A stretch of DNA of 32,000 bases from Candidatus Peribacter riflensis (GCA_001430755.1 CP013062.1:1080001-1112000), one strand, 5' to 3'. Numbered from the stretch's first letter, positions 13,466-29,089 are shown. The notes: a model not told the origin generated them from the sequence alone. Translations and numbers: made by a program.

Positions 13466-14983
13466 TCAATGCTTGAACCCCCGCACCCCCGTAAACACCA
13501 TCGGAATCTTGAGCGCATTTGCCTTTGCGATCACCTCTTCATCCCGCACGGAGCCCCCCGGCTGGACAATGGCGGCAATGCCGAACTTGGCAGCCTCCTC
13601 TACACTATCCGGGAAGGGAAAGAACGCGTCTGAGGCCATGACGGCGTCTTTGGCTTTCTCTCCGGCTCGTCGCGCGGCAATGATCGTCGAATCCACCCGG
13701 CTCGTCTGGCCGGCACCGATGCCCACCGTGCAGGCGTCTTTCACAAAGACGATGGCGTTCGATTTGGCGTGCTTCACGACCTTCCAGGCGAAGAGTAGAT
13801 CGCGGGTCTGCTCCTTTGTCGGCTTGGTTTCCGTCACACACGTGAGATCCTTTTCCGTCACCACGCGCGTATCGAGATTCTGCACGAGCATGCCGCCGAG
13901 CGCGGTGCGGAACGAAACGATCTCGGCATTGGGCTTCATGCAGTGATTTTCAATGACGCGGATTTTTGGCTTCTGCCTGAGAAGTTCCAAGGCTCCCGGT
14001 TCGTAACTTGGCGCGATGATGATCTCGACGAAGATTTTCTGTTCCAAAATCTTTTCGATGACTGCTTTCGTGCATAGCCGGTTCAGAGCGATGATCACGC
14101 CGAAGGCAGAGAGCCTGTCGGCGTCATAGGCGCGCTGAAACGCCTCGGCAATGTCTGCGTGCGAGGCGACCCCAGACGGATTGGCGTGCTTGATACATGC
14201 GGCGGTCGGCTCCTGAAACTCGCAGACCAGATTCCACGCACCATCGGCATCCAGAATGTTCAAGTAACTCATCTGCTTCTCCTCCTGCTGCAGCACGACC
14301 CAATCCGGAGGATTCCCCGGCACTTCGTAGAAGGCTCCCCACTGGTGCGGGTTCTCGCCGTAGCGAAGAGGCGTGCGGTTCGTGAGGAGCACGCCCGTGT
14401 GCAGACGATCCGAGAGCGTACGGGTAATGGCGGTATCGTAGGCGGCCGTGTGCAGGAACACCTTTTCGGCAAGCATCTTCCGCGTTTCCGGTTTCGTCTC
14501 TCCGGCACTCTTCAGTTCCGCCAGAACAGAAGCGTAATCCTGCGGATCGCACACGACAGTCACGCTCTCCGCATTCTTGGCGGCAGCCCGAAGGAGACTG
14601 GGCCCGCCGATATCAATCTGCTCGATTATCTCTTCACGTGTCGCGCCGAGCTTTGCCGCCGTCGTTTCAAACGGGTAGAGGTTCACGCACACGAGGTCGA
14701 TCGGTTCGATGTGTAATTTCTTCGCCTCGGCCACGTGCTCTTTGTCGTCGCGCTTGAAGAGAATACCGCCGAAAATGAGGGGATGGAGTGTCTTGAGTCT
14801 TCCGCCGAAGCACTCGGAAAAGCCCGTCACTTTCTCGACGGGTGTCACAGGGATTTTGGCTTTCTCCAGGGCGACCTTCGTTCCTCCGGTCGAGATGATT
14901 TTGAATCCGAGTTCAGTCAGTCCCCGGGCGAATTCCTCGATGCCGTGTTTGTCACTGACCGAGAGGAGGGCGTAGCGAAGCAT
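13466..14983 (-). CDS. purH: Bifunctional AICAR transformylase / IMP cyclohydrolase
   Basis: MLRYALLSVSDKHGIEEFARGL (MGS-like domain), then KHAKSNAIVFVKD, GIGAGQTSRVDS and ASDAFFPFPD. The track start at 15031 is a TTG, so I trimmed to the ATG at 14983. Confidence 0.9.
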   Translation of the reverse strand: MLRYALLSVSDKHGIEEFARGLTELGFKIISTGGTKVALEKAKIPVTPVEKVTGFSECFGGRLKTLHPLIFGGILFKRDDKEHVAEAKKLHIEPIDLVCVNLYPFETTAAKLGATREEIIEQIDIGGPSLLRAAAKNAESVTVVCDPQDYASVLAELKSAGETKPETRKMLAEKVFLHTAAYDTAITRTLSDRLHTGVLLTNRTPLRYGENPHQWGAFYEVPGNPPDWVVLQQEEKQMSYLNILDADGAWNLVCEFQEPTAACIKHANPSGVASHADIAEAFQRAYDADRLSAFGVIIALNRLCTKAVIEKILEQKIFVEIIIAPSYEPGALELLRQKPKIRVIENHCMKPNAEIVSFRTALGGMLVQNLDTRVVTEKDLTCVTETKPTKEQTRDLLFAWKVVKHAKSNAIVFVKDACTVGIGAGQTSRVDSTIIAARRAGEKAKDAVMASDAFFPFPDSVEEAAKFGIAAIVQPGGSVRDEEVIAKANALKIPMVFTGVRGFKH

Positions 14984-15353
14984 GAAAAGAAACGAGCGGA
15001 AGGAGTCTAGCGTGAAGAAGGAGAAAATCAATAATTTGAGCTCCTACATGCGTTGACCGAAGCATTTGACAAAGATAGATTATATTTAGATCTGATGAAA
15101 ACCAGATCTGTTCATTCAAAGTGTCGGCGAGCAAGTTCCGAGGCAGTTCCTCTTCCACATTTTCAGAAAGAGAACCAACGATGGACGACTTCGGTCACGT
15201 TTGGGCGAGCATCACACTTGCCCTTGTCATGCTGGCAAGTGTTGCCAGTGTGTGGCTGTACTAACTTGCTGACCCACTTTCCCTCCCGAGTTCTGGATAA
15301 GAATTCGGGAGGTTGTCATATTCAAATGAGATTTGGAAAAATATGCGGGGTTT

Positions 15354-15393
15354 CCAAAATCCGTAGCGGAAGATCGCGAGCTTCCGCTACGGA
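15354..15393 (-). terminator. Rho-independent terminator of the pyrophosphatase gene
   Basis: Perfect 13-bp stem tccgtagcggaag (15360..15372) / cttccgctacgga (15381..15393). On the minus strand it is followed by TTTTGG and lies 20 nt after the stop codon. Confidence 0.65.
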
Positions 15394-15413
15394 GATGAAC
15401 AGAAAAAACAGAA

Positions 15414-17531
15414 TCAGATGAACAGCGCCGCGAGTGCGAGTGTCAGGGTCGAGAAGAGCTTGATCAGCACGTGCAGGCTGGGGCCGGCGGTGTCTTTGAA
15501 AGGATCGCCGACCGTATCGCCCGTAACGGCAGCCTGGTGCGCGGGGCTCTTCTTGCCGCCGTAGGCACCCGACTCGATGAACTTCTTCGCGTTATCCCAT
15601 GCGCCGCCGGAGTTGTTGAGGTAGGCAGCAAGGATGACACCCGTGATGGTGCCGACCATCAGGAAACCGGCAACCGCTTCGGCGCGGAAGATGATGCCCA
15701 CTGCAATCGGGGCAACGATCGCGACGAGGCCGGGGAGCACCATCTCTTTGAGGGCGCCGCGAGTGGCGATATCCACTGCCGCAGCGTAATCCGGCTCCTC
15801 CGTTCCCTGCATGATGCCCGCATGCTCCCGGAATTGCTTGCGTACCTCTTCCACGATCACGCCTGCAGCGCGCCCCACAGCTCGGATGGTGAGGGAGGTG
15901 AAGAAGAAGACGATGACTGCACCGAGGAATGCCCCGATGAAGACGGGAACTTTGGCAAGGTCGACCACTGAGATGCGCGCCTCTTCCAGGAATGCCGAGA
16001 AGAGCAGGAAGGCGGCGAGTGCTGCGGAGCCGACGGCGTAGCCCTTCGTGAGGGCCTTGGTCGTGTTGCCGCACGCATCGAGCTCATCCGTGACGAGACG
16101 CAGCTCATCCGGGGCTTTGCTCATCTCCACAATGCCTCCGGCGTTGTCTGTAATGGGTCCGAACATATCCATCGCGAGCACGTAGCCCACCATCGTGAGC
16201 ATGCCCATGGTGGCGACGGCCGTGCCGTACAGGCCGCCCGAGGGGAGGCCCGTCTGCTCACCGAACCAGTAGGAGGCCAGAAGGGCGGCGCACACCGTCA
16301 GCACCGAGAGCCCCGTGGACTCCATGCCGATGGCCGTACCCGAGATGATGTTCGTCGCATGCCCGGTCGTGGAGGCCTTGGCAATCGCCTGTACCGGACG
16401 GTGATCCTTGCTCGTGTAGTAGTCCGTGATGTAAACGAAGGCCACACTCGTCAGGATGCCCACGACCCCGCAGAGAAAGAACCACGGAGCGGCGTTGGCG
16501 AGCTGGAAGAAGGCAACAAAAGAGCCCACGACGCTCCCGGAGGAGGCCGTAGAAAGCATGAGTGCGGAACAGCCGAAGAGTGCGATCGTCGTGAGGCCGG
16601 TCGTCACCCAGTAGCCGCGTACCATCGCCCCCATGGGGGTATCACCCTCTTTGGCGCGCACCGAGTACACGCCGAAGATCGTTGCGATGAGACCGAAGGC
16701 ACGGAGGATCAGAGGGAAGAGAATGCCCTTGAGCCCGAAGACCGGGTAGAGGGCGACTCCCAACACCATCGCGCCGATATTCTCGGCCGAGATGGATTCG
16801 AACAAGTCCGCCCCGCGGCCCGCGCAGTCGCCGACGTTGTCGCCGACGAGGTCCGCGATCACGGCGGGGTTACGGGGATCATCCTCCGGAATGCCGGCCT
16901 CAATCTTGCCCACGAGGTCCGCACCCACATCCGCCGCCTTGGTGTAGATTCCGCCGCCGAGTTGTGCGAAGAGCGCCACGAAGCTCGCTCCGAATCCGTA
17001 GCCGACGATGAGGGCGGGAATCTGCTCTGCAGGAACTCCCATACCGACGCGGTAGAACAAGTAGAGTCCGCTGATGCCGAGGAGTGAGAGTGCGGTGATG
17101 ACGAGTGCCGAGACCGTACCGCTCCGCAAGGCCATCTTGAGTGCGCTGTCGAGACCGGTGCGCGCGCTGGCGGCCACTTTCAGGTTCGCGCGTGTGGCGA
17201 CGACCATGCTCACCACGCCGGCTATTCCTGAGAGCAAACAACCGAGGAGGAACGAGATTCCTATCTCAAATCCGTGTGCCCAGCTGTTCTCTCCTCCCAC
17301 GAGGCCGTACACAATGATCATGAGCAGGCCGACCGTAATCGAGAGGAGCGTGATAGTGCGGTACTGGCGCCGGATGAAGGCGCGTGCCCCCACCGAGATC
17401 GCGCGTGCGACCTTTTCCATGGCGGGAGTGCCGGTGGGCGCAGCTTTCACGGCATTCCAGAACACAAGGCTGTAGGCAAGACCGCCGACGGCGATGACGG
17501 GGGCCAGAAGCTCGAGGAACAAGGAGTTCAT
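15414..17531 (-). CDS. hppA: Membrane-bound proton-translocating pyrophosphatase, K+-independent subtype
   Basis: 705 aa, about 16 TM helices. [18 protein letters not shown] has Lys in the GNTT(K/A) position, the published K+-independence determinant. Also [16 protein letters not shown] and [16 protein letters not shown]. Confidence 0.9.
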
Positions 17532-17675
17532 ACAGAGAGGGGAGAAAAGTGTACGAAAGCATCCCGCGCGGGGAACGAAGGCCTCGCCATCGCTCCGGGG
17601 ACGTCGCCAGAGAGCCTAGGGGTGGGGCTCCTATTCCGTCAACCGGGAGGCCCGGGAACCTGCCGTTCAGGAACT

Positions 17676-17704
17676 TTGCAGAAAGTGCCTTTCTGTGCTA
17701 TCAT
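17676..17704 (+). promoter_or_regulatory. Sigma-70-type promoter TTGCAG-N17-TATCAT (with TGc extended -10) for the response regulator
   Basis: -35 at 17676..17681, -10 at 17699..17704, 20 nt to the ATG at 17725. The segment is 25/32 identical to the histidine-kinase promoter/leader at 27486..27517. Confidence 0.5.
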
Positions 17705-17724
17705 ACATAGTCAGATACACAATT

Positions 17725-18183
17725 ATGCCCACACCCAAAAAACATGTTCCTGCGGGAGAACCGGGCCCGGAAAAGGCCGCTCCACCGGCAGCGGATACGG
17801 CCGCTCCCCCGGTGCAGAATTCGAACGGAAAACGCATCCTCATTGTGGAGGACGAGCGTCCGCTTGCGCATGCTCTGGAACTCAAATTCCACCATGAGGG
17901 CTTCGATACGCACATCTGTCTGGATGGCGAAGAGGCGCTCAAAGAGGCAACCGAAGGAACGTACAACGTCATTCTGCTCGATCTCATCATGCCGCGCATG
18001 GATGGCTTCACCTTTCTGCAGGAGATGAAGAGTCGCGGCGTGAAAACACCTACGGTCATTCTCAGCAACCTCGGACAAGACGAAGACCGTGCGCGCGCCC
18101 AGGAGCTGGGAGCGGTGGGGTACTACGTGAAATCCAATACGCCGATCATGGAGATCATCAAACAAGTGCAATCCCTTCTCTGA
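17725..18183 (+). CDS. Stand-alone receiver-domain response regulator (CheY-like, no output domain)
   Basis: ILIVEDE, phospho-acceptor context VILLDLIMPRMDG, VILSN, YYVKS. The track start at 17695 is a GTG, so I chose the ATG at 17725. The stop is 2 nt before the pilB start. Confidence 0.85.
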   Translation: MPTPKKHVPAGEPGPEKAAPPAADTAAPPVQNSNGKRILIVEDERPLAHALELKFHHEGFDTHICLDGEEALKEATEGTYNVILLDLIMPRMDGFTFLQEMKSRGVKTPTVILSNLGQDEDRARAQELGAVGYYVKSNTPIMEIIKQVQSLL

Positions 18184-18185
18184 CG

Positions 18186-20009
18186 ATGCCTCTTTCTGAC
18201 ACCGATCTCGGCCCCATCCTCGTCCAACAGAATTATCTTTCTGAGGAGGATCTGAAGCGCGTGACGGCGCTGGCCAAGGAGCGGAATCTCCCGCTTCTTT
18301 CGATTCTGTTCGAACAGGGGCTTCTCACACAGGATCTGTACGAGGGAGCCATAGCGGAACACTACAAACTTCCCTTCTTCGATCTACAGGCGCACCTGCC
18401 CTCGCCGGAAGTCATTGCGAAACTCCCCGAGGAAATTGCACAGGCCTACCACACCGTGGTGGCGGAATTCGCCACCGACCGCGCGACGATCGCGACATCG
18501 GAACCGGGACGGGAGAATCTGGAGGAGGTCATGCGGCTCAATCTGGGGCAGAAAGAACCGGTGGTGCCGCCCCAGGAAACCAAAGACAAATCAGGGGAGG
18601 GTGCAGAAGCACCTCAGCAGAAAAAGGTCGTGCAGCGCCTGCTCTCCATTGGAAAGAAAGAAGAGAAAGAGACCGCCCCACAACGGTTTGCCGGCACGAT
18701 CACCTTTGTCTACACCCCCCAGTCGGGCATCGACGCCGCATGCCAGCACTACCGCAAACCTCTCTCCACGCGTTTTCAGTCGATCATCCAGAACGAGAAA
18801 AAAGTCGCACCCGAAATTCTGGAAGAGATCATCAATGATGCCATTGAACTCAGAGCCTCGGACGTACACTTCGAGCCGCAGGAGAAAATCGTTGTCGTCC
18901 GTTTCCGCATCGATGGCGTGATGCACGAAGCGGGACGCATTCCCAAAGAGCATTACGAGGGCGTGGTGAACCGCATCAAGATTCAGGCGAATATGCGCAT
19001 CGACGAGCATTACGCGGCGCAAGACGGTGCCATTCGGTACTCCACTCCGCGCAATGCGTTGGATATCCGCGTCTCGATCGTTCCGCTCGTGGAGGGCGAA
19101 AAGGTGGTGATGCGTCTTCTCTCCTCCTACGTCCGATCCATCACCCTTCTCGATCTGGGTTTCTCGGTCAAAAATCAGGAGATTATCACCGATGCGGCCC
19201 ACAAGCCGTTCGGCATGTTGCTCACGACAGGGCCGACAGGATCGGGAAAGTCCACGACCCTCACGGCGCTCCTGAAGATGCGCAACACACCTGATGTGAA
19301 TATCTCCACCATCGAAGATCCGGTGGAGTACAAGATCCCCGGCGTGAACCACATTCAGGTGAATCCGAAAACCAATCTCACCTTTGCCTCCGGTCTGCGC
19401 GCACTCGTGCGCCAGGACCCGGATATCGTCCTCGTCGGAGAAATCCGTGACGGCGAAACGGCAGATATCTCGGTCAATGCCGCACTCACCGGTCACCTGG
19501 TGCTCTCCACCCTGCACAGTAACGATGCGGCTACGGCCATTCCGCGTCTGCTCGACATGGGCGTGGAGCCCTTCCTGCTCGCGTCCACGTTGGAGCTGGT
19601 GATTGGCCAGCGCCTCGTGCGTCGCGTGTGTCCGCGCTGCCGTCTGAGTGTGAGCGTGCCCATCGAAAAGGCACACACGCTTTTCCCCGGAGCGGACAAG
19701 ATGATTCCTGGGGGAAAGCCGCTCACTCTCTACCGTGGCAAGGGATGCGAAGCCTGCAGCTCTACGGGGTATCGCGGGCGTATCGGTATCTATGAGCTTC
19801 TGGTCATCACACCGAAGATCGAAGAACTCATTCTGCGCCGTGCCTCCAGCTCCGAGCTCAATGAAACCGCAGTGAAGGAGGGCATGCGTCTCATGTTCGA
19901 AGACGGTCTCGAGAAAGTGCTGGCCGGCGTGACGACGATTGAAGAACTGCTCCGCGTGGCGGCTCCGCCTGCCATTGTTCTCAACCCGTCGCATGGCCGA
20001 GACGAATAA
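18186..20009 (+). CDS. pilB: Type IV pilus / type II secretion assembly ATPase (PilB/GspE/ComGA family)
   Basis: N-terminal MshEN/GSPII-N-like domain, Walker A GPTGSGKSTT, Asp box DPDIVLVGEIRD, His box GHLVLSTLHSNDA, and a tetracysteine CPRC...CEAC. Confidence 0.9.
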   Translation: MPLSDTDLGPILVQQNYLSEEDLKRVTALAKERNLPLLSILFEQGLLTQDLYEGAIAEHYKLPFFDLQAHLPSPEVIAKLPEEIAQAYHTVVAEFATDRATIATSEPGRENLEEVMRLNLGQKEPVVPPQETKDKSGEGAEAPQQKKVVQRLLSIGKKEEKETAPQRFAGTITFVYTPQSGIDAACQHYRKPLSTRFQSIIQNEKKVAPEILEEIINDAIELRASDVHFEPQEKIVVVRFRIDGVMHEAGRIPKEHYEGVVNRIKIQANMRIDEHYAAQDGAIRYSTPRNALDIRVSIVPLVEGEKVVMRLLSSYVRSITLLDLGFSVKNQEIITDAAHKPFGMLLTTGPTGSGKSTTLTALLKMRNTPDVNISTIEDPVEYKIPGVNHIQVNPKTNLTFASGLRALVRQDPDIVLVGEIRDGETADISVNAALTGHLVLSTLHSNDAATAIPRLLDMGVEPFLLASTLELVIGQRLVRRVCPRCRLSVSVPIEKAHTLFPGADKMIPGGKPLTLYRGKGCEACSSTGYRGRIGIYELLVITPKIEELILRRASSSELNETAVKEGMRLMFEDGLEKVLAGVTTIEELLRVAAPPAIVLNPSHGRDE

Positions 20010-21198
20010 CACGCCTGCGGCCCAGCCCGTCACGCCCCCTCCAGCCACTGCGCCGGAGGCTGCTTTGCCTGAGATCACCCCAAAACAGCAGCCGTCGCGC
20101 TATGCCGCGCAGCGACAGGAGTTCCGCAAGTTTCTCTCCTCGCTGCAGCACCTGGGCATGGGCAAGCAGCGGATGGTGTTCATTCAGAGTATGTCGCTGA
20201 TGCTCACGGCCGGCCTTTCGCTGGTGGATGCCTTGAAAACACAACTTCTTGAAACCAGATCCAAGGCAGTGCGCACGCTCATTCAAAATATCATCACCGC
20301 AGTCGAATCGGGCTCGCCCCTGTGGAAGGCGATGGATGACCAGTCGTTGTTCTCCCCCTACGAAATCGCGCTCGTCCACATCGGCGAGGAGGGAGGCAAC
20401 TTGGCGCGCAATATGCAGTACCTCTCGGAGCAACAGGAGAAAGACCATGCTCTCAAACAGAAGGTGAAGATGGCGATGATCTATCCGTCGATCGTCGTGG
20501 TCCTTGTCTTCATTCTCATCATGGGGTTGGGACTCTTCGTGCTGCCGAATCTCGTGCAGGTGCTCTACTCGCTGCGGGTGGAGCTTCCGCTCGCCACGCG
20601 TGTCGTGATCGCGTTTTCGCAATTCTTTGAGGCGCACGGCGTGCTCGTAACGCCGCTGCTCATCTTTGCGCTCATTAACCTTTTCCTTCTCGGCAAATAC
20701 ACGCGGCTGCGTGTGGCTTCCCAGTGGCTGGTCTTTCATACCCCCGGCATCGGCAGTCTGGCGCGCGAAGCCACCATTGCGCAGTTCGGCGTGATCATGG
20801 GCGGGCTTCTGCGCGCAGGTGTTCCGTTGGTGGAGGCCCTGCATTCACTGGTGGAGGTGACGAACATTGTCGTCTATCACAACTTCTACGAGCGCCTGCT
20901 CGAACATGTGAATGCCGGCGATTCATTCAGCAAGAGCTTTGCCGCCCTGCCCGAGAGCAGCCATCTCCTCCCTATTTCGGTGCAGCAGCTCATCGTGACC
21001 GGCGAACGATCGGGGGCATTGGCCGAGGTGCTCATGAAGATCGCAGACATGTACGACAAGAAAGCCTCTGAGACGGCAGAGAGACTTCCGGTGATCCTGG
21101 AGCCACTTCTGCTCATTATCATCGGCGGCATCGTCGCAGGCATCGCATTTGCTATCATAGTCCCTATCTACAAAGTCGTCGGGAACATCGGTAACTGA
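19993..21198 (+). CDS. pilC: Type IV pilus platform protein (PilC/GspF/ComGB family)
   Basis: Two GspF-type repeats (SPYEIALVHIGEEGGNL and LPISVQQLIVTGERSGAL) and three TM segments. The track start at 19939 is a TTG. The ATG at 19993 (MAETNNT) overlaps the pilB end by 17 nt. Confidence 0.85.
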   Translation: MAETNNTPAAQPVTPPPATAPEAALPEITPKQQPSRYAAQRQEFRKFLSSLQHLGMGKQRMVFIQSMSLMLTAGLSLVDALKTQLLETRSKAVRTLIQNIITAVESGSPLWKAMDDQSLFSPYEIALVHIGEEGGNLARNMQYLSEQQEKDHALKQKVKMAMIYPSIVVVLVFILIMGLGLFVLPNLVQVLYSLRVELPLATRVVIAFSQFFEAHGVLVTPLLIFALINLFLLGKYTRLRVASQWLVFHTPGIGSLAREATIAQFGVIMGGLLRAGVPLVEALHSLVEVTNIVVYHNFYERLLEHVNAGDSFSKSFAALPESSHLLPISVQQLIVTGERSGALAEVLMKIADMYDKKASETAERLPVILEPLLLIIIGGIVAGIAFAIIVPIYKVVGNIGN

Positions 21199-21226: not shown

Positions 21227-24106
21227 ATGTCGCACCGCGGGTTCACTGCAGTCGAAGTACTGCTCACGCTCGGCATCGTCGCAGTCACAGCCGGTATCAG
21301 CATGCCGCTCTATCGCACCTACCAACTCCGCAGCGAGTTGGATACTGCCATCGAGCAGGCCAAGCACGCCCTCGAGCGCGCCCAAGTGCTGGCACGGGCA
21401 GGGCAGAACGACTCTATGTGGGGCTATGCCACACAGGAGGGCATTCTCTTTCAGGGAGAGGCCTTCGCGATCCGCGAGCCCCAGTCGGATGAGGCGTACA
21501 TTGTGCCGGCCTCCGTAGAGGTCTTGGGCCTGACGGAGGTGGTCTTTCAGCGTGTAACCGGTGAGCCGTTAGTCGGCGGGGAGATCATCTTTCAGGCAGA
21601 CAACGGGGAATGGCGCACCATTACAGTGACAGAGGGGGGGTCGGTGGCTTCGAGTGAATTGTTTCCGCCAGAGAGCAGCTCGAGTAGCACCGTGGCCAGT
21701 GTGGGTGGGAGCAGTACATCTTCCGATATCAGCAGTACCGGCAGCGTTGGTTCGGGCGGCAGCAGTGCGGGCATGTCCGGAGGGTCCGAAGGCAGCACTG
21801 CCTCCGGAGGAGAGACGGGAGGGGGAGATACAGAGAGCTCCAGCAGCGCCGCAACCTGTGATGATGCGTTCACGCTCCTGCCCGATGGCACCATTGAGAC
21901 AACAGGGACGGTGGATGCCACCGTGAAAGTTCTCGGCTCGCAGGTGAGCGAAGGGGCGGGCGGCCCTGCCGCCAGGATCGTTGTATCGATGAGTACGGAT
22001 GAGGGTGATACGTGGGTTCCGCTCTTCGACGGACAAACCGTCCGTGGCGGAGAGGAAGATGTCGTCCAGAATCTCCCTTCGGGTACCAAGCTTCTCATCC
22101 GGGTCAACGGCCGGCACTCCTGGCTCTTCAACCGGACGTTCCTTTCTAATAATTCCGCGGGGCACATGCTGGCCCTGCGCAACGGGCACCGGCTTCCTGT
22201 CGGTTCCTATGACGCCTTCGGCAATCCTGCCGGACTCGCCTCTTTCCTTCGCGCGATCATTGAGGATGGCCGTATCAAGATCCATCCAAAATCCGTCGTC
22301 TTCCTCACAGAGCTCGATGCCCTCTGGAAAGGCGCCTCCAAGTTCCAGGATGCCGTCGTGCAGGTGACCTTTGCCGCAAAGCCCGGCAGCTGCGCGCAGG
22401 CCACCGATCCAAAAGTGAAGATCGTCTTCGACCGGCTCGAGAATCAGAACGCAGGCGATGTCCGTCCCCGGGTATACGTGGGCGAGCAGGGTATCCTCTT
22501 CGCGGAGGATCAGTGGATTCCCCTGTCGGTGGCGGGCGTGACGATGGCCGATTCCTCCCTTGTCGAGAATGTCCCCGGCATGGCTGTAGAACGCCGCAGC
22601 GGAGTATTGCGCGTGCTCCTGCATGGATCGCACATCATTCCATCCGGCAAGGAGCTCGTGGATGCACGCATCATCTTCGATCGTGCCGTCGTGACTTCCA
22701 TCGAGAATGACATGGGGGCCGATACCACCGAAAATCCCACCGACGGCGTCGTGAACGACGGCACGGGCGGGGATGAGGTGACCATTGCGGATGACCGCGG
22801 CTCGGTACGGTTCCAGACGCGCGTCACCAGCGCGGATGATGCCATCTTCATTCACTGGGCAATCGGCATGGCCAGTTCCAGCTCCAGTGCCGCTTCGGGG
22901 GCCAGTTCCGCAGCGTCGAGTCAGGCCTCTTCCGGATCTGCGCAGTCAGCGAGCAGTGAAGGGCAGACCGGCAGTGAGGGCGAAACCGGCAGCGAAGCGA
23001 GTGTCGCACCCGATGCCTGTGCCGCCGCATACACGATGGATGATCGGGGGCGCATGGTGCTCGGCGAGAAGGCCGATGTCTCGTTCACCGTTCTTGGATC
23101 CTATGCCACGTACGGTGCCAACGGTCCGATGATTCACGTGCGCCTGAATGCGAGTCTGGACGGAGGTGGCACGTGGCGCGGGCTCTTCAATTTCCGCGAT
23201 ATCATCACGGGCGACACGCAGACCATACGGGATGTTCCTTCGGGATCCGTACTCACCCTCTCGGCTGAGGGGCGTTACTCCTGGCTCTTCAAGCGTGTCG
23301 CGCGCATCGAAGATGACGGAGACCGCGTGCGCGTGCTCCGGCCCGGCTCGGTGGTCCCCGGCATCGGCTTGCTCTTGAACCCCATGCGCCTGAAGCCTTT
23401 CCTGCGGGAGCGCATTTCCGAAGGCAGAGTGCTCCTCACCGGCCGGCAGGTGCTGGCGCTTGTGGAGCTGCAGACACTGGATGACACGGCAGATTATCAG
23501 GATGCCGTGGTGCTGGTCACGATTGCGAAGCCGGTGAGCAGCGGCGGACCCTGTGCACAGGAAGATGCTGCGCTCAGCAGTCAGTCGAGCGTTCCTGCGG
23601 GAACGAGCAGTACTTCTTCCACTTCCTCGGTGGCAGGCCCGAGAATCACGATCTGTCACTTCACCAGCGCAGACCGGCTGCATCCAGCCACAATGGAAAT
23701 CAATGAATCTGCCTGGTCTGCGCACAGCGCGATCGGCGATCGTCTGGGTGCCTGTGAAGCCGACGAGGACGGTGACGGCATTCCGAATGCACAAGACTTC
23801 TGCTCCGGCACGTACCTGCCCGAGTCCGTACCGACCGAGTTCATGCTCTTCAACCGGTATGCCCTCACGGGGTCGAGCGGCGTGTTCCGCGAGGGGCCGC
23901 GCAAGAGGGTGAGTTCCTTCTCCCTCTCCGATACCCGCGGTTGCAGCTGCGAACAGCTTGTGGCGGTGGCCGAGGGCGAGCGGGATTACTACTTCCCGCA
24001 CGAGCCTCTGCTCCATCGGGAGCTCAAGAGCCTCTTCCCGTTCTATACGAACGGCGCACGGCAATTCGGTTGCGGGGCGGCGATCCTGCGCATGTCGCGG
24101 CCGTAA
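21227..24106 (+). CDS. Giant (959 aa) modular type IV pilin-like protein: prepilin N-terminus, three Ser/Gly linkers, two paralogous 181-aa Cys-bounded domains, Cys-rich C-terminal domain
   Basis: Class III signal MSHRG/FTAVEVLLTLGIVAV (Gly-1, Phe+1, Glu+5). The internal repeats are at 21857..22399 and 23018..23560. The C-terminal domain contains DEDGDGIPNAQD (TSP3-like Ca2+ motif) and ITICH...GDRLGAC. Confidence 0.75.
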   Translation: MSHRGFTAVEVLLTLGIVAVTAGISMPLYRTYQLRSELDTAIEQAKHALERAQVLARAGQNDSMWGYATQEGILFQGEAFAIREPQSDEAYIVPASVEVLGLTEVVFQRVTGEPLVGGEIIFQADNGEWRTITVTEGGSVASSELFPPESSSSSTVASVGGSSTSSDISSTGSVGSGGSSAGMSGGSEGSTASGGETGGGDTESSSSAATCDDAFTLLPDGTIETTGTVDATVKVLGSQVSEGAGGPAARIVVSMSTDEGDTWVPLFDGQTVRGGEEDVVQNLPSGTKLLIRVNGRHSWLFNRTFLSNNSAGHMLALRNGHRLPVGSYDAFGNPAGLASFLRAIIEDGRIKIHPKSVVFLTELDALWKGASKFQDAVVQVTFAAKPGSCAQATDPKVKIVFDRLENQNAGDVRPRVYVGEQGILFAEDQWIPLSVAGVTMADSSLVENVPGMAVERRSGVLRVLLHGSHIIPSGKELVDARIIFDRAVVTSIENDMGADTTENPTDGVVNDGTGGDEVTIADDRGSVRFQTRVTSADDAIFIHWAIGMASSSSSAASGASSAASSQASSGSAQSASSEGQTGSEGETGSEASVAPDACAAAYTMDDRGRMVLGEKADVSFTVLGSYATYGANGPMIHVRLNASLDGGGTWRGLFNFRDIITGDTQTIRDVPSGSVLTLSAEGRYSWLFKRVARIEDDGDRVRVLRPGSVVPGIGLLLNPMRLKPFLRERISEGRVLLTGRQVLALVELQTLDDTADYQDAVVLVTIAKPVSSGGPCAQEDAALSSQSSVPAGTSSTSSTSSVAGPRITICHFTSADRLHPATMEINESAWSAHSAIGDRLGACEADEDGDGIPNAQDFCSGTYLPESVPTEFMLFNRYALTGSSGVFREGPRKRVSSFSLSDTRGCSCEQLVAVAEGERDYYFPHEPLLHRELKSLFPFYTNGARQFGCGAAILRMSRP
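21857..22399 (+). repeat. Copy A of the intragenic 181-aa domain duplication (protein level) inside the giant pilin
   Basis: CDDAFT...KPGSCAQ. Aligned to copy B with no gaps over the first 114 positions, I count about 36 identities, including VLGS, GP, TW, LF, PSG, GR.SWLF.R. The end shares QDAVV.VT.AKP and CAQ. Confidence 0.8.
23018..23560 (+). repeat. Copy B of the intragenic 181-aa domain duplication
   Basis: CAAAYT...SSGGPCAQ. It has the same length as copy A and the same Cys...CAQ boundaries. Confidence 0.8.
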
Positions 24107-24132: not shown

Positions 24133-25725
24133 GTGTCACCCCGAGCACAGTCGAAGGGCGGCACCGCGTTTCTAGAGTTCGTTCCCCGGCGGAGTGTATC
24201 CCGAGCGAGTCGAAGGGCTCGGAATGACAAGCTCTCTGCGCTCCTTCAAAGAGCCTTCCCTGTATACTGCAGAACTGTTCCCTTCTCCTCCCGTCCGCGA
24301 TCCGGCTCGCTGCTGCTCGAAGCCCTGCTGGGCGTAGCCATCTTTGCGATTCTCGCGGGGGCGGTGAGCACGGTACTCTTCGTGGGGCAGGAAGGTGCAC
24401 TCAAGAGCGGAGACAGGATACGTGCGGTCTTTCTCGCTTCCGAGGCGCTGGCTGCCGCTCGCACAATGCGGGATGCCTCTTTCGATCAGCTCGTGGATGG
24501 GAAGCATGGGGTCTGTATCGGAGCAGCCGGAACATGGGAATTCTGCGGCCAGGAGAATGTGGCTGCAGATGGTTTCCGTACGACGCTCACTGTGCAGACG
24601 CTTGCCGAGAGTCACGTGCGCCTCTCTGCAGAGACGCGTTGGCAGGGGGGTGCCATAGGTTCCGGATCGGTTCTGATTGCCGAAGAGCTGACAGACTGGC
24701 GTGTGGTGAAGCCGATTGGCGACTGGGCGACCGTGCACGAGGAGGGCGGTTTCACCATCGAGGGCCAGCCGCTCTTCTCCGCGATCGCGCTCAACGATGG
24801 TGCCGCTTTCGTCGCCAGTGCGTACGGAGAGGGCGGTAAGGGGCTGCATGTCTTCTCGTACGCGGAGGGCGGCGATCCCCTGCCCATTGCGGCCGGATTC
24901 GATTTGGGTGTTGCCGCTTACGCGGTGCTGGTGGATGGGGATGTGCTGTATGTTGCGACCGCAGACACTTCTGCAGAAGTGCAGATCTTCGATGTGTCCG
25001 CACCGGCGGAATTCTCTATGACCAAGCGGCTCGCGACGATCAATGTGCCCGGAGACGGACGAGCACGGTCTCTCGCGTTCTTCAATAACACACTCTTCGT
25101 GGGTGCGACCGAGGACATTATAGAAGCCGAACTCTACGCATTCGATGTGGCGGATGCGGGGGATCCGGCTCTTCTGGATATTCTGGATGACACCGCCTCG
25201 TACTTCGGGCTTAGCCTGCACGAAGGGTTCGCCTATGTTGCGAGCTCTATGGATTCCATGGAACTGCGGGTCATCGACGTCTTCGATCCCGCCGATCTCT
25301 CCGTTGCAGTTGGCGAGGGGTACAACCTCACGGATGTGCAGGATGGGCTCGCCATGGCGACCGTCAACAGCGACGTGCTCATCGGCAGGCGCAGTGGAGA
25401 GGCCATTGAGGAACTCGTGCTTCTCGATGTGAGCAGTGGAGCGGTTCCTTCCCCGCCACCCGGTCCGTGGTATCAGGAAATGGGCGGGAGCGTTCCCGCT
25501 CTCACCGTGGAGCCGGGAGGACGCTACGCGTTCATCGCCACCGATAACATCGCCGCGCAATTGCAGGTGGCGGACCTGCAGGCCTTTCGTGCGGGTCAGT
25601 TCCCCATCATCTCCTCCGCGCTCACCTCGACCGGCGGAGGGCGGGCAGTCGCCTACGATGCACAGCGTGACCGCGTGCTCCTCGCCACGGATCGCGGAAT
25701 TCTCCTCTACCGTCCCGGTACATGA
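24133..25725 (+). CDS. Pseudopilin fused to an LVIVD-like beta-propeller repeat domain; start codon uncertain
   Basis: Prepilin-type segment RSG/SLLLEALLGVAIFAILAGAV (Glu+5) at 24295..24360. Four or more repeats of the type LYVA...EVQIFDVSAP, LFVG...ELYAFDVADAGDP, AYVA...ELRVIDVFDP, ELVLLDVSSG. The only in-frame ATG/GTG/TTG between the upstream stop and the cleavage motif is GTG 24133. Confidence 0.6.
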   Translation: MSPRAQSKGGTAFLEFVPRRSVSRASRRARNDKLSALLQRAFPVYCRTVPFSSRPRSGSLLLEALLGVAIFAILAGAVSTVLFVGQEGALKSGDRIRAVFLASEALAAARTMRDASFDQLVDGKHGVCIGAAGTWEFCGQENVAADGFRTTLTVQTLAESHVRLSAETRWQGGAIGSGSVLIAEELTDWRVVKPIGDWATVHEEGGFTIEGQPLFSAIALNDGAAFVASAYGEGGKGLHVFSYAEGGDPLPIAAGFDLGVAAYAVLVDGDVLYVATADTSAEVQIFDVSAPAEFSMTKRLATINVPGDGRARSLAFFNNTLFVGATEDIIEAELYAFDVADAGDPALLDILDDTASYFGLSLHEGFAYVASSMDSMELRVIDVFDPADLSVAVGEGYNLTDVQDGLAMATVNSDVLIGRRSGEAIEELVLLDVSSGAVPSPPPGPWYQEMGGSVPALTVEPGGRYAFIATDNIAAQLQVADLQAFRAGQFPIISSALTSTGGGRAVAYDAQRDRVLLATDRGILLYRPGT

Positions 25726-26144
25726 TGCAATTGCGCTCCCGATCCGGCTACGTTTTCCTCTTGAGCATTATCATGGTGGGTGCCATCGCTGTGGCGACAC
25801 TGGGATCCCTGCTCATGATCGGCGTCGGTTCCCTGCAGATCGGCGGAACCGTGCAGCAGTCGGAACAGGCGCGCTCGCTCGCTCAGACCTGTGCGGAACG
25901 CGCACTCCGGTCTTTGTGGGAAGATGGCGCCTATATCGGCTCCGAGGAATTCACCTTTGCAGAGGGGACCTGCGCGATCTGGCGCGTGGGGGGGTCGGGG
26001 AATGAGAATCGTTCCCTCTGTACTGAGGGCAATGTGGGGTCGACCGTACGGCGTTACGAGATCCTGCTCCAGCGTGTCCTCCCCTCCATTCAGGTCTATG
26101 CCTGGCGCGAGGTGGAGCAATTCACTGCCTGTGCTTTCGAATGA
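25722..26144 (+). CDS. PilX/ComGG-like minor pseudopilin (no Glu+5)
   Basis: MMQLRSRSG/YVFLLSIIMVGAIAVATLGSLL. 140 aa, four Cys. ATGA overlaps on both sides couple it to the neighbouring genes. Confidence 0.55.
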   Translation: MMQLRSRSGYVFLLSIIMVGAIAVATLGSLLMIGVGSLQIGGTVQQSEQARSLAQTCAERALRSLWEDGAYIGSEEFTFAEGTCAIWRVGGSGNENRSLCTEGNVGSTVRRYEILLQRVLPSIQVYAWREVEQFTACAFE

Positions 26145-26788
26145 TGCATTTCTCCCCTCAGCGCCGGCCGGGTACCACGCTCGTGGAGCTTCTGCTCTTC
26201 CTCGCCTTTTTCGCCGTGGTGGGGGGGACTGTTGTTTCCATTCTCTTCGCAACGAGCGACCAGCGTGCGCGCCAGCAGACCATCGTATCTGTGGAGCGTA
26301 CGGGACTCCAGATTCTCCAGAGCCTGCGTTGGCGCATCGAGCATGCCGAGCGCATTTTCGATCCCGCGAACGGGGCGACTGGGGCGATCCTCGCGCTGCA
26401 AATGGCATCAGAATCGGACCATCCTCTCATTGTGGGCCTCGAGGACGGTGCCTTGGTTCTGGTGCTGCGCGATACCAAGAAGACACTCACGACGGAGGGC
26501 ATGACTATTACACATTTCACGGTCCGCAATACCTCCCCCGCCAGCACACATCCGAGCGTTTTGATCTCATTCGACCTCACTCAGTCGTATCCGCTCCCTT
26601 CTGCTGCCGTTCCCGAGTACACCCGGAATTTCGAGATGCTCGTCTCGCTCCTTCCCAAAGACCACACAGTGGGTGACGACTGCGGCTGTGCAGCGCCATC
26701 ATGCCAGGGGGCCATCTATCAGTGGGAGATCTGTTCCGGGACCAGCTGTTCCGCAGCGCCGATCACTCTGCCGTGTCCTGCGCTGTAG
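26141..26788 (+). CDS. Minor pseudopilin with a Cys-rich C-terminus
   Basis: MMHFSPQRRPG/TTLVELLLFLAFFAVVGG (Gly-1, Glu+5). The last 40 aa contain 7 Cys (GDDCGCAAPSCQGAIYQWEICSGTSCSAAPITLPCPAL). Confidence 0.7.
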   Translation: MMHFSPQRRPGTTLVELLLFLAFFAVVGGTVVSILFATSDQRARQQTIVSVERTGLQILQSLRWRIEHAERIFDPANGATGAILALQMASESDHPLIVGLEDGALVLVLRDTKKTLTTEGMTITHFTVRNTSPASTHPSVLISFDLTQSYPLPSAAVPEYTRNFEMLVSLLPKDHTVGDDCGCAAPSCQGAIYQWEICSGTSCSAAPITLPCPAL

Positions 26789-26919: not shown

Positions 26920-27366
26920 ATGAAACTTCGCCTCTCCCGAGCAGGGTTCACGCTCATTGAGCTCCTCCTCGTCATTGGGATCATCGCGATCCTCGCTTCC
27001 ATCGTCATCGTGGCCATCAACCCCACCAAGCAGATGGGTGATGCACGCAACGCACAGCGCCGCAGCGATGTGAACACCGTTCTGAACGCGGTTTATCAGT
27101 ACGCCATTGATAACAACGGCACCATGCCGGGCTGTCTGGCATCGGGTACCGGAGGAAATATCTGCGTGAAGGGCTCTTCCTGCACGGGTGTGACAGGTGG
27201 CTGCGACCTCGATTCACTCACCACGTCGTACATCGTGGATCTGCCCACAGATCCTTCTGGCGCAACGGGCAATGACACGAACTATGATGTTGCCATCACC
27301 AGCGGACGCGTAACGGTCTCGGCTCCCGAAGCCGAGCAGAGTCAGACCATCAGCGTGACACGCTAA
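26920..27366 (+). CDS. Type IV major pilin candidate (148 aa)
   Basis: MKLRLSRAG/FTLIELLLVIGIIAILASIVIVAINP is a textbook prepilin leader and N-methylation/cleavage motif. The globular part has 3 Cys. A strong terminator follows. The track start at 26818 adds 34 implausible residues. Confidence 0.85.
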   Translation: MKLRLSRAGFTLIELLLVIGIIAILASIVIVAINPTKQMGDARNAQRRSDVNTVLNAVYQYAIDNNGTMPGCLASGTGGNICVKGSSCTGVTGGCDLDSLTTSYIVDLPTDPSGATGNDTNYDVAITSGRVTVSAPEAEQSQTISVTR

Positions 27367-27514: not shown

Positions 27515-29089
27515 ATGCAGGCTCCCCTTGCTCCGCCCCGGCCGGACCCTCCGCGCACATCTGCACGTGGTGAAACGCAGCGGCGCACAGGATTCGGCAT
27601 GTCCATCTTCTGGCGCACCATGCGCCAGTTCGCGCTCCTTGCCACCTTCTCGGTCGTGCTCTTCTCGGGTGCGACGGCAATCGCCGCACGGCCGCTGCCG
27701 GCATTCCTGGGCTCGCTCTTTCTCCTGCTCGGAGTGCTGGTCTTCACGCTCGCGGTGGCGCTGGCGTACTTTCTCGCACGCGGGCTGACAGGCCCCATCG
27801 TCTCGCTCAGCCGCCGCGTGGCGCGCCTGGGGCCGGATCACTGGTCCTATCAGCCTGCAGAGAACACCACCGACGAAGTCGGCACGCTCGAAGCCGTGGT
27901 GGCGGATATGGCGCATCGTCTGGAGCGAGGCTATCTCTATCTGCAGGGTGAGGTGGAGAAGCGTACGGCGGAGCTCAAAGAGCAGTACCTCAAAGACCGG
28001 ACGATCCTCTCATCCATCCACCACGGAGTGATCGTCACCGATCCTCAGGGAAGGGTGATCGATGCCAATCCCGCAGCCGTGCAGATGATGGGGCAGAGTC
28101 GGCTCGAAGAAATCCACGGGCGTTCTGTTGTTGAGGTTCTTCGTCTCTCTCATCACCACCAGTTCCTCCCAGAGCAGGAACACCCTGTGATGCACTGTCT
28201 GAAGTCCCGCACCGAAGTCCGCCCGCACCCGCAGGAGCAGAGCAGCCTGGAGCGCCCCGATCACTCGCGCATTCCGGTCATGCTCATCGCCAGCCCCCTC
28301 CTCTCTGAAGATCAACTGCTCGGGGTGGTCGTGGTGTTCCACGACGTGACCGAGGAACGCAAACTGGACTACATGAAGTCCGAATTCATCTCTCTGGCTT
28401 CCCACCAGCTCCGTACACCCCTCTCGACGATCTCATGGTACGTGGAGCTTTTGCAGACGGATGACCGTGACAAGCTTACCGAGACGCAGAAGGCCTATGT
28501 GGACGAAATGCACGTCGCCGGCCAGCGTATGGCGCGCCTGATCGATGCCCTGTTGCATGTGTCCAGGCTGGAGGGCGGCGGGATCACGCCAATGAAGCAG
28601 AATGTCGATCTCGTCGCGTTGATCCGGGATGTAGCTGAAGACGAACGAGCGCTCGCGAAGGATCGCAAAATCAGCATGGAGCTTCGGCTGCCGTCCGGTC
28701 TGACCCTGGTCACGGATCCCACGCTGGTGCAGATCATTCTGCACAACATCATCAGCAACGCGGTGAAGTACTCCGAGGCGGGGGACTCCATCGGCATTTC
28801 CCTCTCGCAGACCGAGGAGACCGTGGCGGTCACGGTGCAGGATACGGGTGTGGGCATCCCTGAGAAGGAGCAGCGCTACCTCTTCACGCGTCTCTTCCGG
28901 GCTTCCAATGCGACGAAGGTGGATACGACGGGCAGCGGGCTCGGCCTCTACATTTCCCGCATGCTCGCAGAGCAGCTCAAAGGCAGAATTTCGTTCCTCA
29001 GTACCGAGGGGAAGGGAACGTCATTCATGCTGGAGCTGCCGTTGGAGAATCCAAAGAAGCCGGATGCCCCCTCGGCCGAGGGTTCCTGA
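27515..29089 (+). CDS. Membrane sensor histidine kinase (2 TM, HAMP-like, PAS, HisKA, HATPase_c)
   Basis: H-box SEFISLASHQLRTPLSTI, N-box IILHNIISNAVKYS, G1 VQDTGVGIPEKE, G2 GSGLGLYISR. PAS segment ILSSIHHGVIVTDPQGRVIDANPAA. Confidence 0.85.
   Translation: MQAPLAPPRPDPPRTSARGETQRRTGFGMSIFWRTMRQFALLATFSVVLFSGATAIAARPLPAFLGSLFLLLGVLVFTLAVALAYFLARGLTGPIVSLSRRVARLGPDHWSYQPAENTTDEVGTLEAVVADMAHRLERGYLYLQGEVEKRTAELKEQYLKDRTILSSIHHGVIVTDPQGRVIDANPAAVQMMGQSRLEEIHGRSVVEVLRLSHHHQFLPEQEHPVMHCLKSRTEVRPHPQEQSSLERPDHSRIPVMLIASPLLSEDQLLGVVVVFHDVTEERKLDYMKSEFISLASHQLRTPLSTISWYVELLQTDDRDKLTETQKAYVDEMHVAGQRMARLIDALLHVSRLEGGGITPMKQNVDLVALIRDVAEDERALAKDRKISMELRLPSGLTLVTDPTLVQIILHNIISNAVKYSEAGDSIGISLSQTEETVAVTVQDTGVGIPEKEQRYLFTRLFRASNATKVDTTGSGLGLYISRMLAEQLKGRISFLSTEGKGTSFMLELPLENPKKPDAPSAEGS

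Follow-up and report, generated by a model that had tools for sequence, protein, structure and literature searches.

What is a 959-amino acid (aa) protein that begins like a pilin doing in the genome of Candidatus Peribacter riflensis? The question is raised by a 32,000-nucleotide stretch of that genome (GCA_001430755.1, CP013062.1:1080001-1112000; G+C ~59%), the whole of which is referred to here as the window and supplies all coordinates given below. We call the protein the giant pilin. Its best explanation overall, which we hold with rather more confidence than doubt, is that it is a minor pilin of modular build, that it belongs to the type IV pilus (T4P) of groundwater Peribacteria (Peregrinibacteria, within the Patescibacteria), which are ultrasmall and probably symbiotic, and that it displays lectin-like adhesion modules. 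The parts of this reading differ in firmness. That the protein is a modular minor pilin of a T4P is very probable; that its duplicated domains are ligand-binding, lectin-like units is an evenly balanced proposition; and an adhesin function, a location at the pilus tip, Ca2+ binding and the ligand itself are matters that we infer.

The giant pilin and its N-terminal module

The giant pilin gene begins with ATG and occupies positions 21227-24106 of the plus strand, including the stop codon. The preliminary description of this DNA, made from the sequence alone, had proposed a 959-aa open reading frame (ORF) at this position with a class III prepilin signal and had read the product as a giant modular pilin. 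The ORF is as described, and the wider reading is supported by the signal, by the predicted fold of the N-terminal module and by an operon that runs from PilB and PilC through the minor pilins to a major pilin, with a prepilin peptidase also encoded in the window (see below). The protein is 100% identical to one (P0001) encoded on a 106.5-kb groundwater metagenome contig (PRJNA292723).

The pilin module spans aa 1-147 (21227-21667) and comprises a leader, MSHRG, with predicted cleavage after Gly5, Phe at position +1 and Glu at position +5. The N-terminus, MSHRG/FTAVEVLLTLGIVAV (here and below the slash marks the predicted cleavage site), is a class III prepilin signal of the form MSHRG/FTAVE. 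It passes the threshold of NCBIfam model TIGR02532 (IV_pilin_GFxxxE; 16.9 against a cut-off of 16.3) and lies under that of Pfam N_methyl (PF07963; 16.0 against 21.2). In 24 homologues, E10 (Glu+5 of the mature pilin) is invariant and the residue at -1 is always one of G, A and S. Together with TIGR02532, this invariance bears out the signal noted in the preliminary description.

The AlphaFold2 (AF2) model of the whole protein, run with a 24-sequence alignment, has a mean predicted local distance difference test (pLDDT) score of 73.9, with domains at 72-95 (mostly 80-95) and linkers below 50. Within it, the pilin module is predicted to form a 'lollipop' (pLDDT 86-93) with an alpha1 helix at aa 8-58 and beta-strands from 65 to ~142. 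Beyond this module, the architecture is, as modelled, one of three disordered linkers joining a first domain pair (D1 and M), a second copy of D (D2), and a C-terminal assembly of a mini-module (ICH), a TSP3 loop and a Cys module; D1, M, D2 and ICH are all modelled as confidently folded units with disordered linkers between them. The protein holds 10 Cys in total, an even number that would be compatible with five disulfides. When the complete 959-aa model was compared with the PDB using Foldseek, only diffuse beta-sandwiches were returned (otoferlin and other C2 domains, TbpB, reelin) with TM below 0.1, and this search was uninformative.

When the alignment of the whole family was searched as a profile against the PDB, matches were confined to the alpha1 helices of pilins. 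Further clues to the class of the pilin module come from similarities that lie well beneath curated thresholds: PRK10506 scores 21.6 against a cut-off of 158 over aa 3-134, and the module misses the family cut-offs for GspH (TIGR01708, 14.2 against 80) and ComGD (15.9 against 70). Weak GspH and ComGD matches are present in 13-15 of the 24 homologues, and weak ComGD, ComGE and GspH matches in 13-18. In common with the GspH, FimU and ComGD class, the giant pilin comes first among the minor pilins behind the platform gene, and it has a weak full-length similarity (aa 3-134) to PRK10506; unlike it, canonical members are 140-190 aa long without extra modules, and the scores here are far below cut-off. 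'GspH-like' is thus at most weakly indicated and is best treated as a lead, with no family assigned.

The duplicated domain and its resemblance to lectins

The duplicated domain, D, is present as D1 (aa 211-391, 21857-22399), the first beta-sandwich copy, with the motifs STDEGDTW, GRHSWLF and ELDALWKGASKFQDAVV and the Cys pair C211/C389, and as D2 (aa 598-778, 23018-23560), with SLDGGGTW, GRYSWLF, the acidic segment ELQTLDDTADYQDAVV and C598/C776. Both copies are 181 aa long, with Cys as the first residue and C-A-Q as the last three, and a BLASTP alignment extends over their full length with 35% identity and 50% positives (E = 9e-31, far above chance). The claim in the preliminary description of two paralogous domains of equal length, about one-third identical, therefore stands. 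The preliminary description had suggested a disulfide clamp; of the Cys that would form it, C211 and C389 are invariant in the 24 homologues, with conservation of 90% or more for C598 and C776. D1 copies group together across the giant pilin family, as do D2 copies, and since each groups with its own kind the duplication must be older than the divergence of the family. Directly abutting D1 is the middle domain, M (aa 392-546, 22400-22864), for which AF2 predicts an all-beta structure (pLDDT 72-93, mostly 80-93). M has no Pfam, NCBIfam or PDB matches, no relatives were detectable outside the giant pilin family, and it co-occurs only with D.

The preliminary description could put no name to D, and profile searches likewise found no Pfam, NCBIfam or PDB-sequence family that covers it. 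Each copy contains one Asp-box (S-x-D-x-G-x-T-W; STDEGDTW in D1, SLDGGGTW in D2), of which S48, G52 and W55 in D numbering are invariant in 29 D copies, and weak matches of D to BNR/sialidase families are restricted to this motif. We rejected a sialidase or BNR-propeller identity: there is a single Asp-box per domain, the fold is a sandwich and the PDB profile match is to the Asp-box only. Assignments as F5/8 type C, Reelin subrepeat B or CE2_N were also set aside, each appearing in one to three members at E ~0.01-0.1 and inconsistently.

Unannotated as it is, D is not rare. A profile built from the 29 copies and searched against 1.84 billion cluster representatives matched 891 protein clusters (counted at 50% identity) with an E-value of 1e-3 or lower, 317 of them at E <= 1e-10, which makes D a widespread, mobile module. 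We scanned 91 of the 891 matches against Pfam for partner domains. Most partners proved to be signatures of type IV filament subunits at the N-terminus, of four kinds (bacterial pilin, PilX, TadE/TadG and archaeal pilin): N_methyl was found in 19, archaeal Pilin_N in 11, TadE in four, PilX_N in three, Tad in two and Tad_C in one; none of the Pfam families matched in these carriers covers D itself. Among 114 full-length matches with an intact N-terminus, typed by regular expression, 59 have an explicit pilin-type motif and 47 an N-terminus classed as 'other hydrophobic', many of which are visibly, on inspection, alpha1 helices with miscalled starts. D is the last domain, with 12 or fewer residues after it, in 59 of the 114. 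Named carriers include Thermoplasmatota archaeal proteins and Joint Genome Institute entries annotated 'Flp pilus assembly protein TadG', and one PilX-type carrier adjoins a GspH-like pilin gene. A few are giant surface proteins other than pilins (P0078, with 15 copies, P0116 and P0166).

Modelled alone, D1 is predicted with high confidence (pLDDT 90.6, predicted TM-score 0.89). The preliminary description had proposed structure prediction and a Foldseek search for aa 211-391, and these place the domain nearest to PA-IIL lectins and DUF4114 proteins. Against the PDB, the highest-probability match is BclA (2vnv; probability 1.00, target- and query-normalised TM-scores, TMt and TMq, of 0.65 and 0.48), and the PA-IIL-like protein thrombocorticin is matched with probability 0.93-0.99; the best E-value (5e-4) is that of a C2 domain, and no match is close. 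Against BFVD, giant-virus DUF4114 proteins rank 1, 2 and 29, with probabilities of 1.00, 0.96 and 0.90.

The same relationship is suggested by sequence. D carries a motif, E-L...D-F-Q-D-A-V-V, that we take to resemble the E-D...D-x-D-[YF]-N-D-x-V of DUF4114 and PA-IIL proteins. The family consensus is EL....ADFQDAVV, with Gln replacing the PA-IIL Asn throughout, and the E...D[FY]QD motif is near-invariant in more than 180 copies. When a 189-copy D profile was compared by hhalign with a three-sequence PA-IIL alignment (LecB, CV-IIL and RS-IIL, each verified against the PDB beforehand), the score was 23-26, with P = 2e-4 to 7.5e-4 and a probability of 22-25%. The best of 60 controls with shuffled columns scored 20.7, short of even the lower real score (23.3), and a reversed control scored 16.1. 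At the core of the alignment, A-D-F-Q-D-A-V-V of D lies opposite D-N-D-Y-N-D-A-V-V of LecB, a segment that holds the Ca2+ ligands D101, N103 and D104. An earlier form of the comparison, a 29-copy D alignment against LecB alone, aligned 15 columns with a probability of 12% and was discarded. The two copies in Ca. P. riflensis differ at the motif: in D2, ELQTLDDTADYQDAVV is acid-rich with D-Y-Q-D intact (E...D.DD..D-Y-Q-D-A-V-V), and in D1, ELDALWKGASKFQDAVV has Lys at the Asp position (K-F-Q-D) where more distant orthologues keep D-F-Q-D. As judged from these residues, D2 is the likelier Ca2+- and glycan-binding unit, and D1 may be degenerate or re-purposed in this subclade.

A connection between this fold and pili has precedent. 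DUF4114 is the N-terminal module of the pilus-tip proteins PilY1.1 and PilY1.2 of Myxococcus xanthus; a D498A substitution at the Ca2+ site of the PilY1.1 module abolishes colony twitching dependent on extracellular polysaccharide (EPS) whilst pili are still formed, and DUF4114 was related by the authors to the PA-IIL, BclA and RS-IIL lectins (PMC9109919, PMC13190605). In the Acanthamoeba mannose-binding protein, a DUF4114 beta-sandwich binds mannose resin and host cells (PMC11934332). D appears to share with DUF4114 and with the PA-IIL family (LecB, BclA, RS-IIL, CV-IIL) a beta-sandwich and a C-terminal acidic strand of the D-x-D-[YF]-[NQ]-D-A-V-V type, and with PilY1.1 and PilY1.2 both its place on a T4P component and a proposed Ca2+-dependent binding of glycans. 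It differs in having an Asp-box, a pair of Cys at its N- and C-termini and Gln for Asn in the motif, and in being fused to a pilin, whereas the DUF4114 of PilY1 is fused to the PilY1 beta-propeller, which is not a pilin.

Several observations weigh against a lectin-bearing minor pilin. None of the 29 D copies matches Pfam DUF4114 (PF13448) even at E <= 10, and PF13448 is missing from the 25 commonest of the 30 families matched in the 91 wider homologues. The hhalign probability of just 22-25% is below proof of homology, and the modest TMq values of 0.3-0.5, with C2 domains scoring alike, could reflect fold convergence combined with a short shared motif. D is also longer than PA-IIL (181 aa against 114) and lacks the C-terminal carboxylate ligand used by PA-IIL lectins, an oligomerisation-dependent feature that is impossible in D because the domain is internal; and in D1 of Ca. 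P. riflensis a Lys stands where a Ca2+ ligand would be expected. On the pilus side, GspH-type assignment is weakly founded, at 14-22 bits against curated cut-offs of 70-158, and no PilT retraction ATPase is encoded within the window. Taken together, the lines of evidence on D agree in suggesting that it is distantly related to the Ca2+-lectin fold of PA-IIL and DUF4114, and they stop short of proof. A bolder proposal is that the D family, fused as it is to four kinds of filament N-terminus, serves the type IV filaments of Bacteria and Archaea alike as a dedicated cargo module and represents an ancient Ca2+-dependent lectin lineage related to PA-IIL and DUF4114, and that in Peribacteria the giant pilin with its tandem domains determines host recognition in an episymbiotic way of life. 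We make it tentatively, thinking it somewhat less probable than its negation.

Linkers and C-terminal modules

Three low-complexity segments separate the folded units: linker 1 (aa 148-210, 21668-21856), rich in Ser, Gly and Thr (S 38%, G 24%, T 11%), linker 2 (aa 547-597, 22865-23017), rich in Ser, Ala and Gly (S 37%, A 23%, G 13% over aa 546-597), and linker 3 (aa 779-805, 23561-23641), rich in Ser (37%). All are predicted by AF2 to be disordered (pLDDT ~28-30 for aa 150-208, 550-592 and 777-803). The preliminary description had placed Ser/Gly/Thr linkers before both D domains, as their composition bears out, and linker 3 is an addition to it.

The positions of the linkers are conserved across homologues whilst their length and chemistry vary. 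Linker 1 ranges from 58 to 197 aa, linker 2 from 20 to 62 aa with one outlier of 245 aa, and linker 3 from 0 to 50 aa (13-50 in all but one homologue). Tandem Repeats Finder detected no codon-repeat arrays in the linkers that might hint at slippage-driven variation in length. Three homologues (P0018, P0019 and P0027) have, in place of the Ser/Gly linkers, stretches rich in Asp and Gly (D 37-50%) that look like TSP3-like Ca2+-binding repeats. In another, P0010, linker 1 is 194 aa long and Cys-rich (S 22%, D 15%, C 9%); one of the 24 scanned homologues matches NCBIfam NF033662 ('acidic double-disulfide repeat', E 7.5e-20), and the P0010 linker is the likely site of this match. Because some lineages use Asp/Gly in place of Ser/Gly, the linkers are better regarded as spacers than as a specific substrate for O-glycosylation, an idea that we have downgraded accordingly; Ser-linked glycosylation of the linkers is speculative.

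Linker 3 leads into a short unit at aa 806-845 (23642-23761; ITICHFTSADRLHPATMEINESAWSAHSAIGDRLGAC) that we call ICH from its I-C-H start. It includes C810 and C843 and is predicted to comprise a beta-hairpin (strands 806-811 and 821-826) followed by a helix (827-836). The motif ITICH...SAHSAIGDRLGAC highlighted in the preliminary description is present at aa 808-843, ending in HSAIGDRLGAC. The unit has the consensus [IV]CHxPPGNxxNxQT[LI]x[IV]xxSAWxAHxxHGDxxGxC over ~40 aa, and its conserved Cys, His and Asp residues may form a metal site. It recurs in 43 D-bearing proteins, typically in the order pilin-ICH-linker-D in a protein of ~400-540 aa. We also observed that it is a recurrent, unannotated mini-domain, with up to five copies in one 3300-aa protein (examples are P0166, P0048 and P0073).

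Overlapping the end of ICH is a TSP3-like (thrombospondin type 3) Ca2+ loop (aa 842-859, 23750-23803; ACEADEDGDGIPNAQDFC), whose motif DEDGDGIPNAQD had also been picked out in the preliminary description. Pfam TSP_3 (PF02412) matches these residues as a single repeat (E 1.9e-4, 21.5 bits), under the gathering cut-off of 25; the match recurs in 20 of the 24 homologues, with a best E of 2e-5, and is also a precomputed annotation for P0004. The remainder of the protein forms a Cys module (aa 846-959, 23762-24103; PESVPT ... RGCSCEQ ... FGCG), defined by conservation and by its relatives, that has low AF2 confidence and is strongly conserved: C859, C906, C908 and C949 are invariant. Across aa 806-959 there are six Cys (810, 843, 859, 906, 908 and 949), one fewer than the seven counted for the last ~150 aa in the preliminary description. 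No Pfam model covers the Cys module. The C-terminal ~100 aa (TSP3 loop, PESVPT, GCSCEQ(II), GC) are related to a module that ends many unrelated secreted proteins (P0185-P0196), among them nuclease-like, phosphatase-like, LamG and YVTN beta-propeller proteins, and the module may serve in sorting, in anchoring or in binding.

The properties of these distal units bear on whether it is D that binds. The giant pilin could be a modular pilin in which the D domains are inert, rigid stalk units, like Ig domains, with binding left to M or to the ICH/TSP3/Cys assembly. The weakness of the lectin similarity, which C2-like sandwiches equal, would fit such a role for D, as would a purely structural Asp-box and the loss of an acidic motif residue from D1; moreover, the Cys module is the most distal part of the protein and highly conserved, with many invariant residues, and the conserved His, Cys and Asp of ICH suggest a metal site. 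That D is terminal in 59 of 114 carriers, the position expected of a functional head, speaks against a stalk, as does the near-invariance of E...D[FY]QD in more than 180 copies, and the DUF4114 modules of PilY1.1 and the amoebal mannose-binding protein are functional binders. We consider inert D domains rather unlikely.

The pilus operon and a proposed role in attachment

The giant pilin gene is the first of four minor pilin genes in what is a T4P operon, with one major pilin, on the plus strand. At its head is a stand-alone response-regulator receiver (17695-18183; Pfam Response_reg E 5e-21), followed by a PilB/GspE-type assembly ATPase (18186-20009; Pfam T2SSE E 1.9e-121, with an MshEN domain) and a PilC/GspF platform protein (19939-21198, with gene callers starting at 20065; Pfam T2SSF E 4.5e-50). 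After the giant pilin come a second modular minor pilin (24133-25725; RPRSG/SLLLE, class III motif, LVIVD repeats), a 140-aa minor pilin-like protein (25722-26144; SRSG/YVFLL, no Glu+5), a 215-aa minor pilin with a Cys-rich tail (26141-26788; RRPG/TTLVE) and a 148-aa pilin (26920-27366; SRAG/FTLIELLLVIGIIAILA; Pfam N_methyl E 1.9e-6), the second and third of the minor pilins being supported by synteny. The N-termini of the 148-aa pilin are near-identical between genomes, and it is the likely major pilin. A HAMP-PAS histidine kinase (27515-29089; Pfam scan, synteny) closes the cluster, and the response regulator and kinase on either side hint at regulation of expression or function. The prepilin peptidase PilD is encoded ~12 kb upstream (9022-9780, plus strand; Pfam A24_N_bact E 2.6e-26, Peptidase_A24).

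The same gene order is found in three other contigs in which the giant protein is just 41-47% identical. We identified 26 homologues of 552-1070 aa, 22 of them 937-1070 aa and the four shorter ones on short contigs. Where named, nearly all are from Candidatus Peregrinibacteria/Peribacteraceae metagenome-assembled genomes (MAGs), with one labelled Kiritimatiellales and one named only as Patescibacteria group, and they are annotated as 'hypothetical' or, once, as 'type II secretion system GspH family protein'. A census using one genome per species gave a similar picture, with 49 loci, nearly all in Peribacteria/Peregrinibacteria MAGs, one labelled Kiritimatiellales and two assigned only to the Patescibacteria group. 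The 'Kiritimatiellales' contig (JAIPIN010000007.1) carries a complete Peribacteria-type operon with a 993-aa giant pilin and is probably a mis-binned Peribacteria contig. In one Peregrinibacteria MAG, the slot after purH, response regulator, PilB and PilC is filled by P0110, a 399-aa pilin-ICH-D protein, and because it occupies this slot the giant pilin appears to be an expansion of an older pilin-ICH-D protein; D would have been duplicated, M inserted and ICH relocated beside an added C-terminal module.

The neighbouring genes have features of their own. In the second modular pilin (RPRSG/SLLLEALLGVAIF) there is no ATG, GTG or TTG between GTG 24133 and the cleavage site, which would imply a leader of 59 aa; gene callers disagree, giving 419 aa on one contig and 530 aa on another, and leaders in homologues are ~14-36 aa. 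Its ~400-aa LVIVD-repeat region (Pfam E 4e-5) is probably a beta-propeller, reminiscent of PilY1 and of Saccharibacteria PilX2, and the gene lies beside that of the giant pilin in all loci examined. An exact 11-nt direct repeat, AGTCGAAGGGC, occurs at 24149-24159 and 24208-24218, 59 nt apart, between the giant pilin gene and this class III motif; it may have arisen by chance or mark a regulatory site. The 140-aa protein (SRSG/YVFLLSIIMVG) has no Pfam match and, lacking Glu+5, follows the pattern of a capping minor pilin of the GspK/PilX type. The C-terminal ~40 aa of the 215-aa minor pilin form the Cys-rich tail DDCGCAAPSCQGAIYQWEICSGTSCSAAPITLPCP, with similar tails in homologues, for example GGCGSCPIPSCENHTGKWYHCNADSC. 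On the opposite strand, purH (AICARFT/IMPCHase) is kept near, upstream of the response regulator, in divergent Peregrinibacteria (L003, L005 and L057); in this window an H+-pyrophosphatase gene (15414-17531) sits between the two (13466-18183). Three ORFs near the prepilin peptidase, 5782-7731 (649 aa), 8374-8982 (202 aa) and 11782-12900 (372 aa), have no Pfam match, and divergent assembly components of the PilM/N/O type might be among them.

The operon also bears on whether the giant pilin enters a filament at all. It could instead be a pilin-anchored surface protein that is never polymerised, its signal serving as a cleavable membrane anchor and its 800-aa ectodomain staying on the cell envelope as a static adhesin or an S-layer-associated protein. 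In favour of this are the great size of the cargo for a filament subunit, a pilin module that falls under the curated cut-offs of every named minor-pilin family, a C-terminal module common to many secreted proteins that are not pilins, and the occurrence of D itself in giant surface proteins other than pilins, such as the 15-copy P0078, P0116 and P0166. Against it stand the invariance of Glu+5, which is needed for the registration of subunits in filaments, and the constant place of the gene, between PilC and the remaining minor pilins at every locus examined; bulky modular pilins have been found experimentally to be incorporated into pili in monoderms (PMC8179133). An anchored protein is improbable. 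A pseudopilus of the type II secretion system (T2SS) or Com kind, serving protein export or DNA uptake and not adhesion, with the giant pilin as a GspH/ComGD subunit capturing cargo or DNA, is more improbable still and was set aside as the principal reading, since the NCBI name of one homologue, the weak ComGD/ComGE/GspH matches and the lack of PilT in the window that would favour it are set against a separate 148-aa major pilin that is highly conserved and typical of type IVa pili, modules that are extracellular, disulfide-bearing and lectin-like or Ca2+-binding, with none resembling a DNA-binding fold, and the absence, to our knowledge, of an outer membrane or secretin for a T2SS in CPR (candidate phyla radiation) bacteria.

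How might a modular minor pilin of this size work? PilD would cleave the giant pilin after Gly5, and its alpha1 helix would join the filament along with the other three minor pilins, which would prime assembly. The ~800-aa string of modules could then ride the pilus at or just below its tip; as Patescibacteria are not known to have an outer membrane or secretin, cargo of this bulk could travel outward. The 61-residue disordered linker, with the two others, would allow the modules to range through the space about the end of the pilus, and D2, perhaps with D1, would bind glycans in a Ca2+-dependent manner, making the protein a multivalent adhesin for surface glycans of a host cell or substrate to which the linkers give reach. 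Disulfides and the TSP3 Ca2+ loop may stabilise the exposed chain outside the cell. The preliminary description had proposed a pilus-tip adhesin: the adhesin part of that idea is refined by the link to a lectin fold, whereas the tip location is less certain, given a pilin module with a weak likeness to GspH/ComGD, a class placed beneath the tip complex.

Several characterised pilins offer parallels. The type examples of modular pilins are two adhesins of Streptococcus sanguinis, PilB, which bears a vWA module, and PilC, whose module is a ConA-like lectin (PMC8179133), which share with the giant pilin a class III signal, a small pilin module, a linker and bulky modules, and which are likewise minor pilins encoded in a pilus operon, in an organism without an outer membrane, with a proposed role in direct adhesion (Raynaud et al. 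2021; Shahin et al. 2023). They differ in carrying one module on a short loop, as against five or six modules and three long linkers here. The giant pilin, at 959 aa, also exceeds the 860-aa 'most extreme' case in a survey of InterPro that found more than 1,200 modular pilins in 264 architectures, CPR included, with an undercount where modules lack signatures (PMC8179133). A parallel within the CPR is offered by Saccharibacteria minor pilins with jelly-roll or beta-propeller domains, which are implicated in binding to the host, where the receptors are probably glycans (PMC11623550). TM7x PilX1 (beta-jelly-roll) and PilX2 (C-terminal beta-propeller) are, by description, CPR minor pilins with large C-terminal domains proposed to be adhesins, and PilX2 has a parallel in the neighbouring 530-aa pilin with its probable beta-propeller; they belong to a different CPR phylum, and the Peribacteria protein is far larger and has a duplicated module. 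CofB, from the type IVb (T4b) pilus of enterotoxigenic Escherichia coli, has ~520 residues and two extra domains, of the beta-repeat and beta-sandwich kinds. Like the giant pilin, it is a large minor pilin with beta-domains on a flexible linker that acts in adhesion or initiation at the tip (PMC8179133), but it belongs to the T4b class and no sequence or fold match to it was detected here.

That a modular minor pilin can be an adhesin is already known. What is new is the multi-module architecture and the size of the giant pilin, the place of D in a large unannotated family tied to the subunits of type IV filaments in bacteria and archaea alike, and the tentative link to PA-IIL and DUF4114. Three modules defined here by sequence (D, ICH and the C-terminal Cys module) have been missed by domain databases, and for this reason InterPro surveys undercount modular pilins; the giant pilin itself would be missed by such a survey, as none of its modules carries a database signature. 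The recurrence of D links its carriers to the DUF4114 module of Myxococcus PilY1.1, and its presence on bacterial, Tad-type and archaeal pilins suggests a general way to make type IV filaments sticky. For the organism itself, the Peribacteria genome paper noted T4P and, as a possible means of attachment, extracellular proteins that are large and Cys-rich, with no mention of the giant pilin (PMC4736985). Host recognition in CPR bacteria (Patescibacteria) has been worked on mainly in a few cultured Saccharibacteria, where lectin-like minor pilins are implicated, and the giant pilin provides a concrete, conserved candidate for host attachment in Peribacteria.

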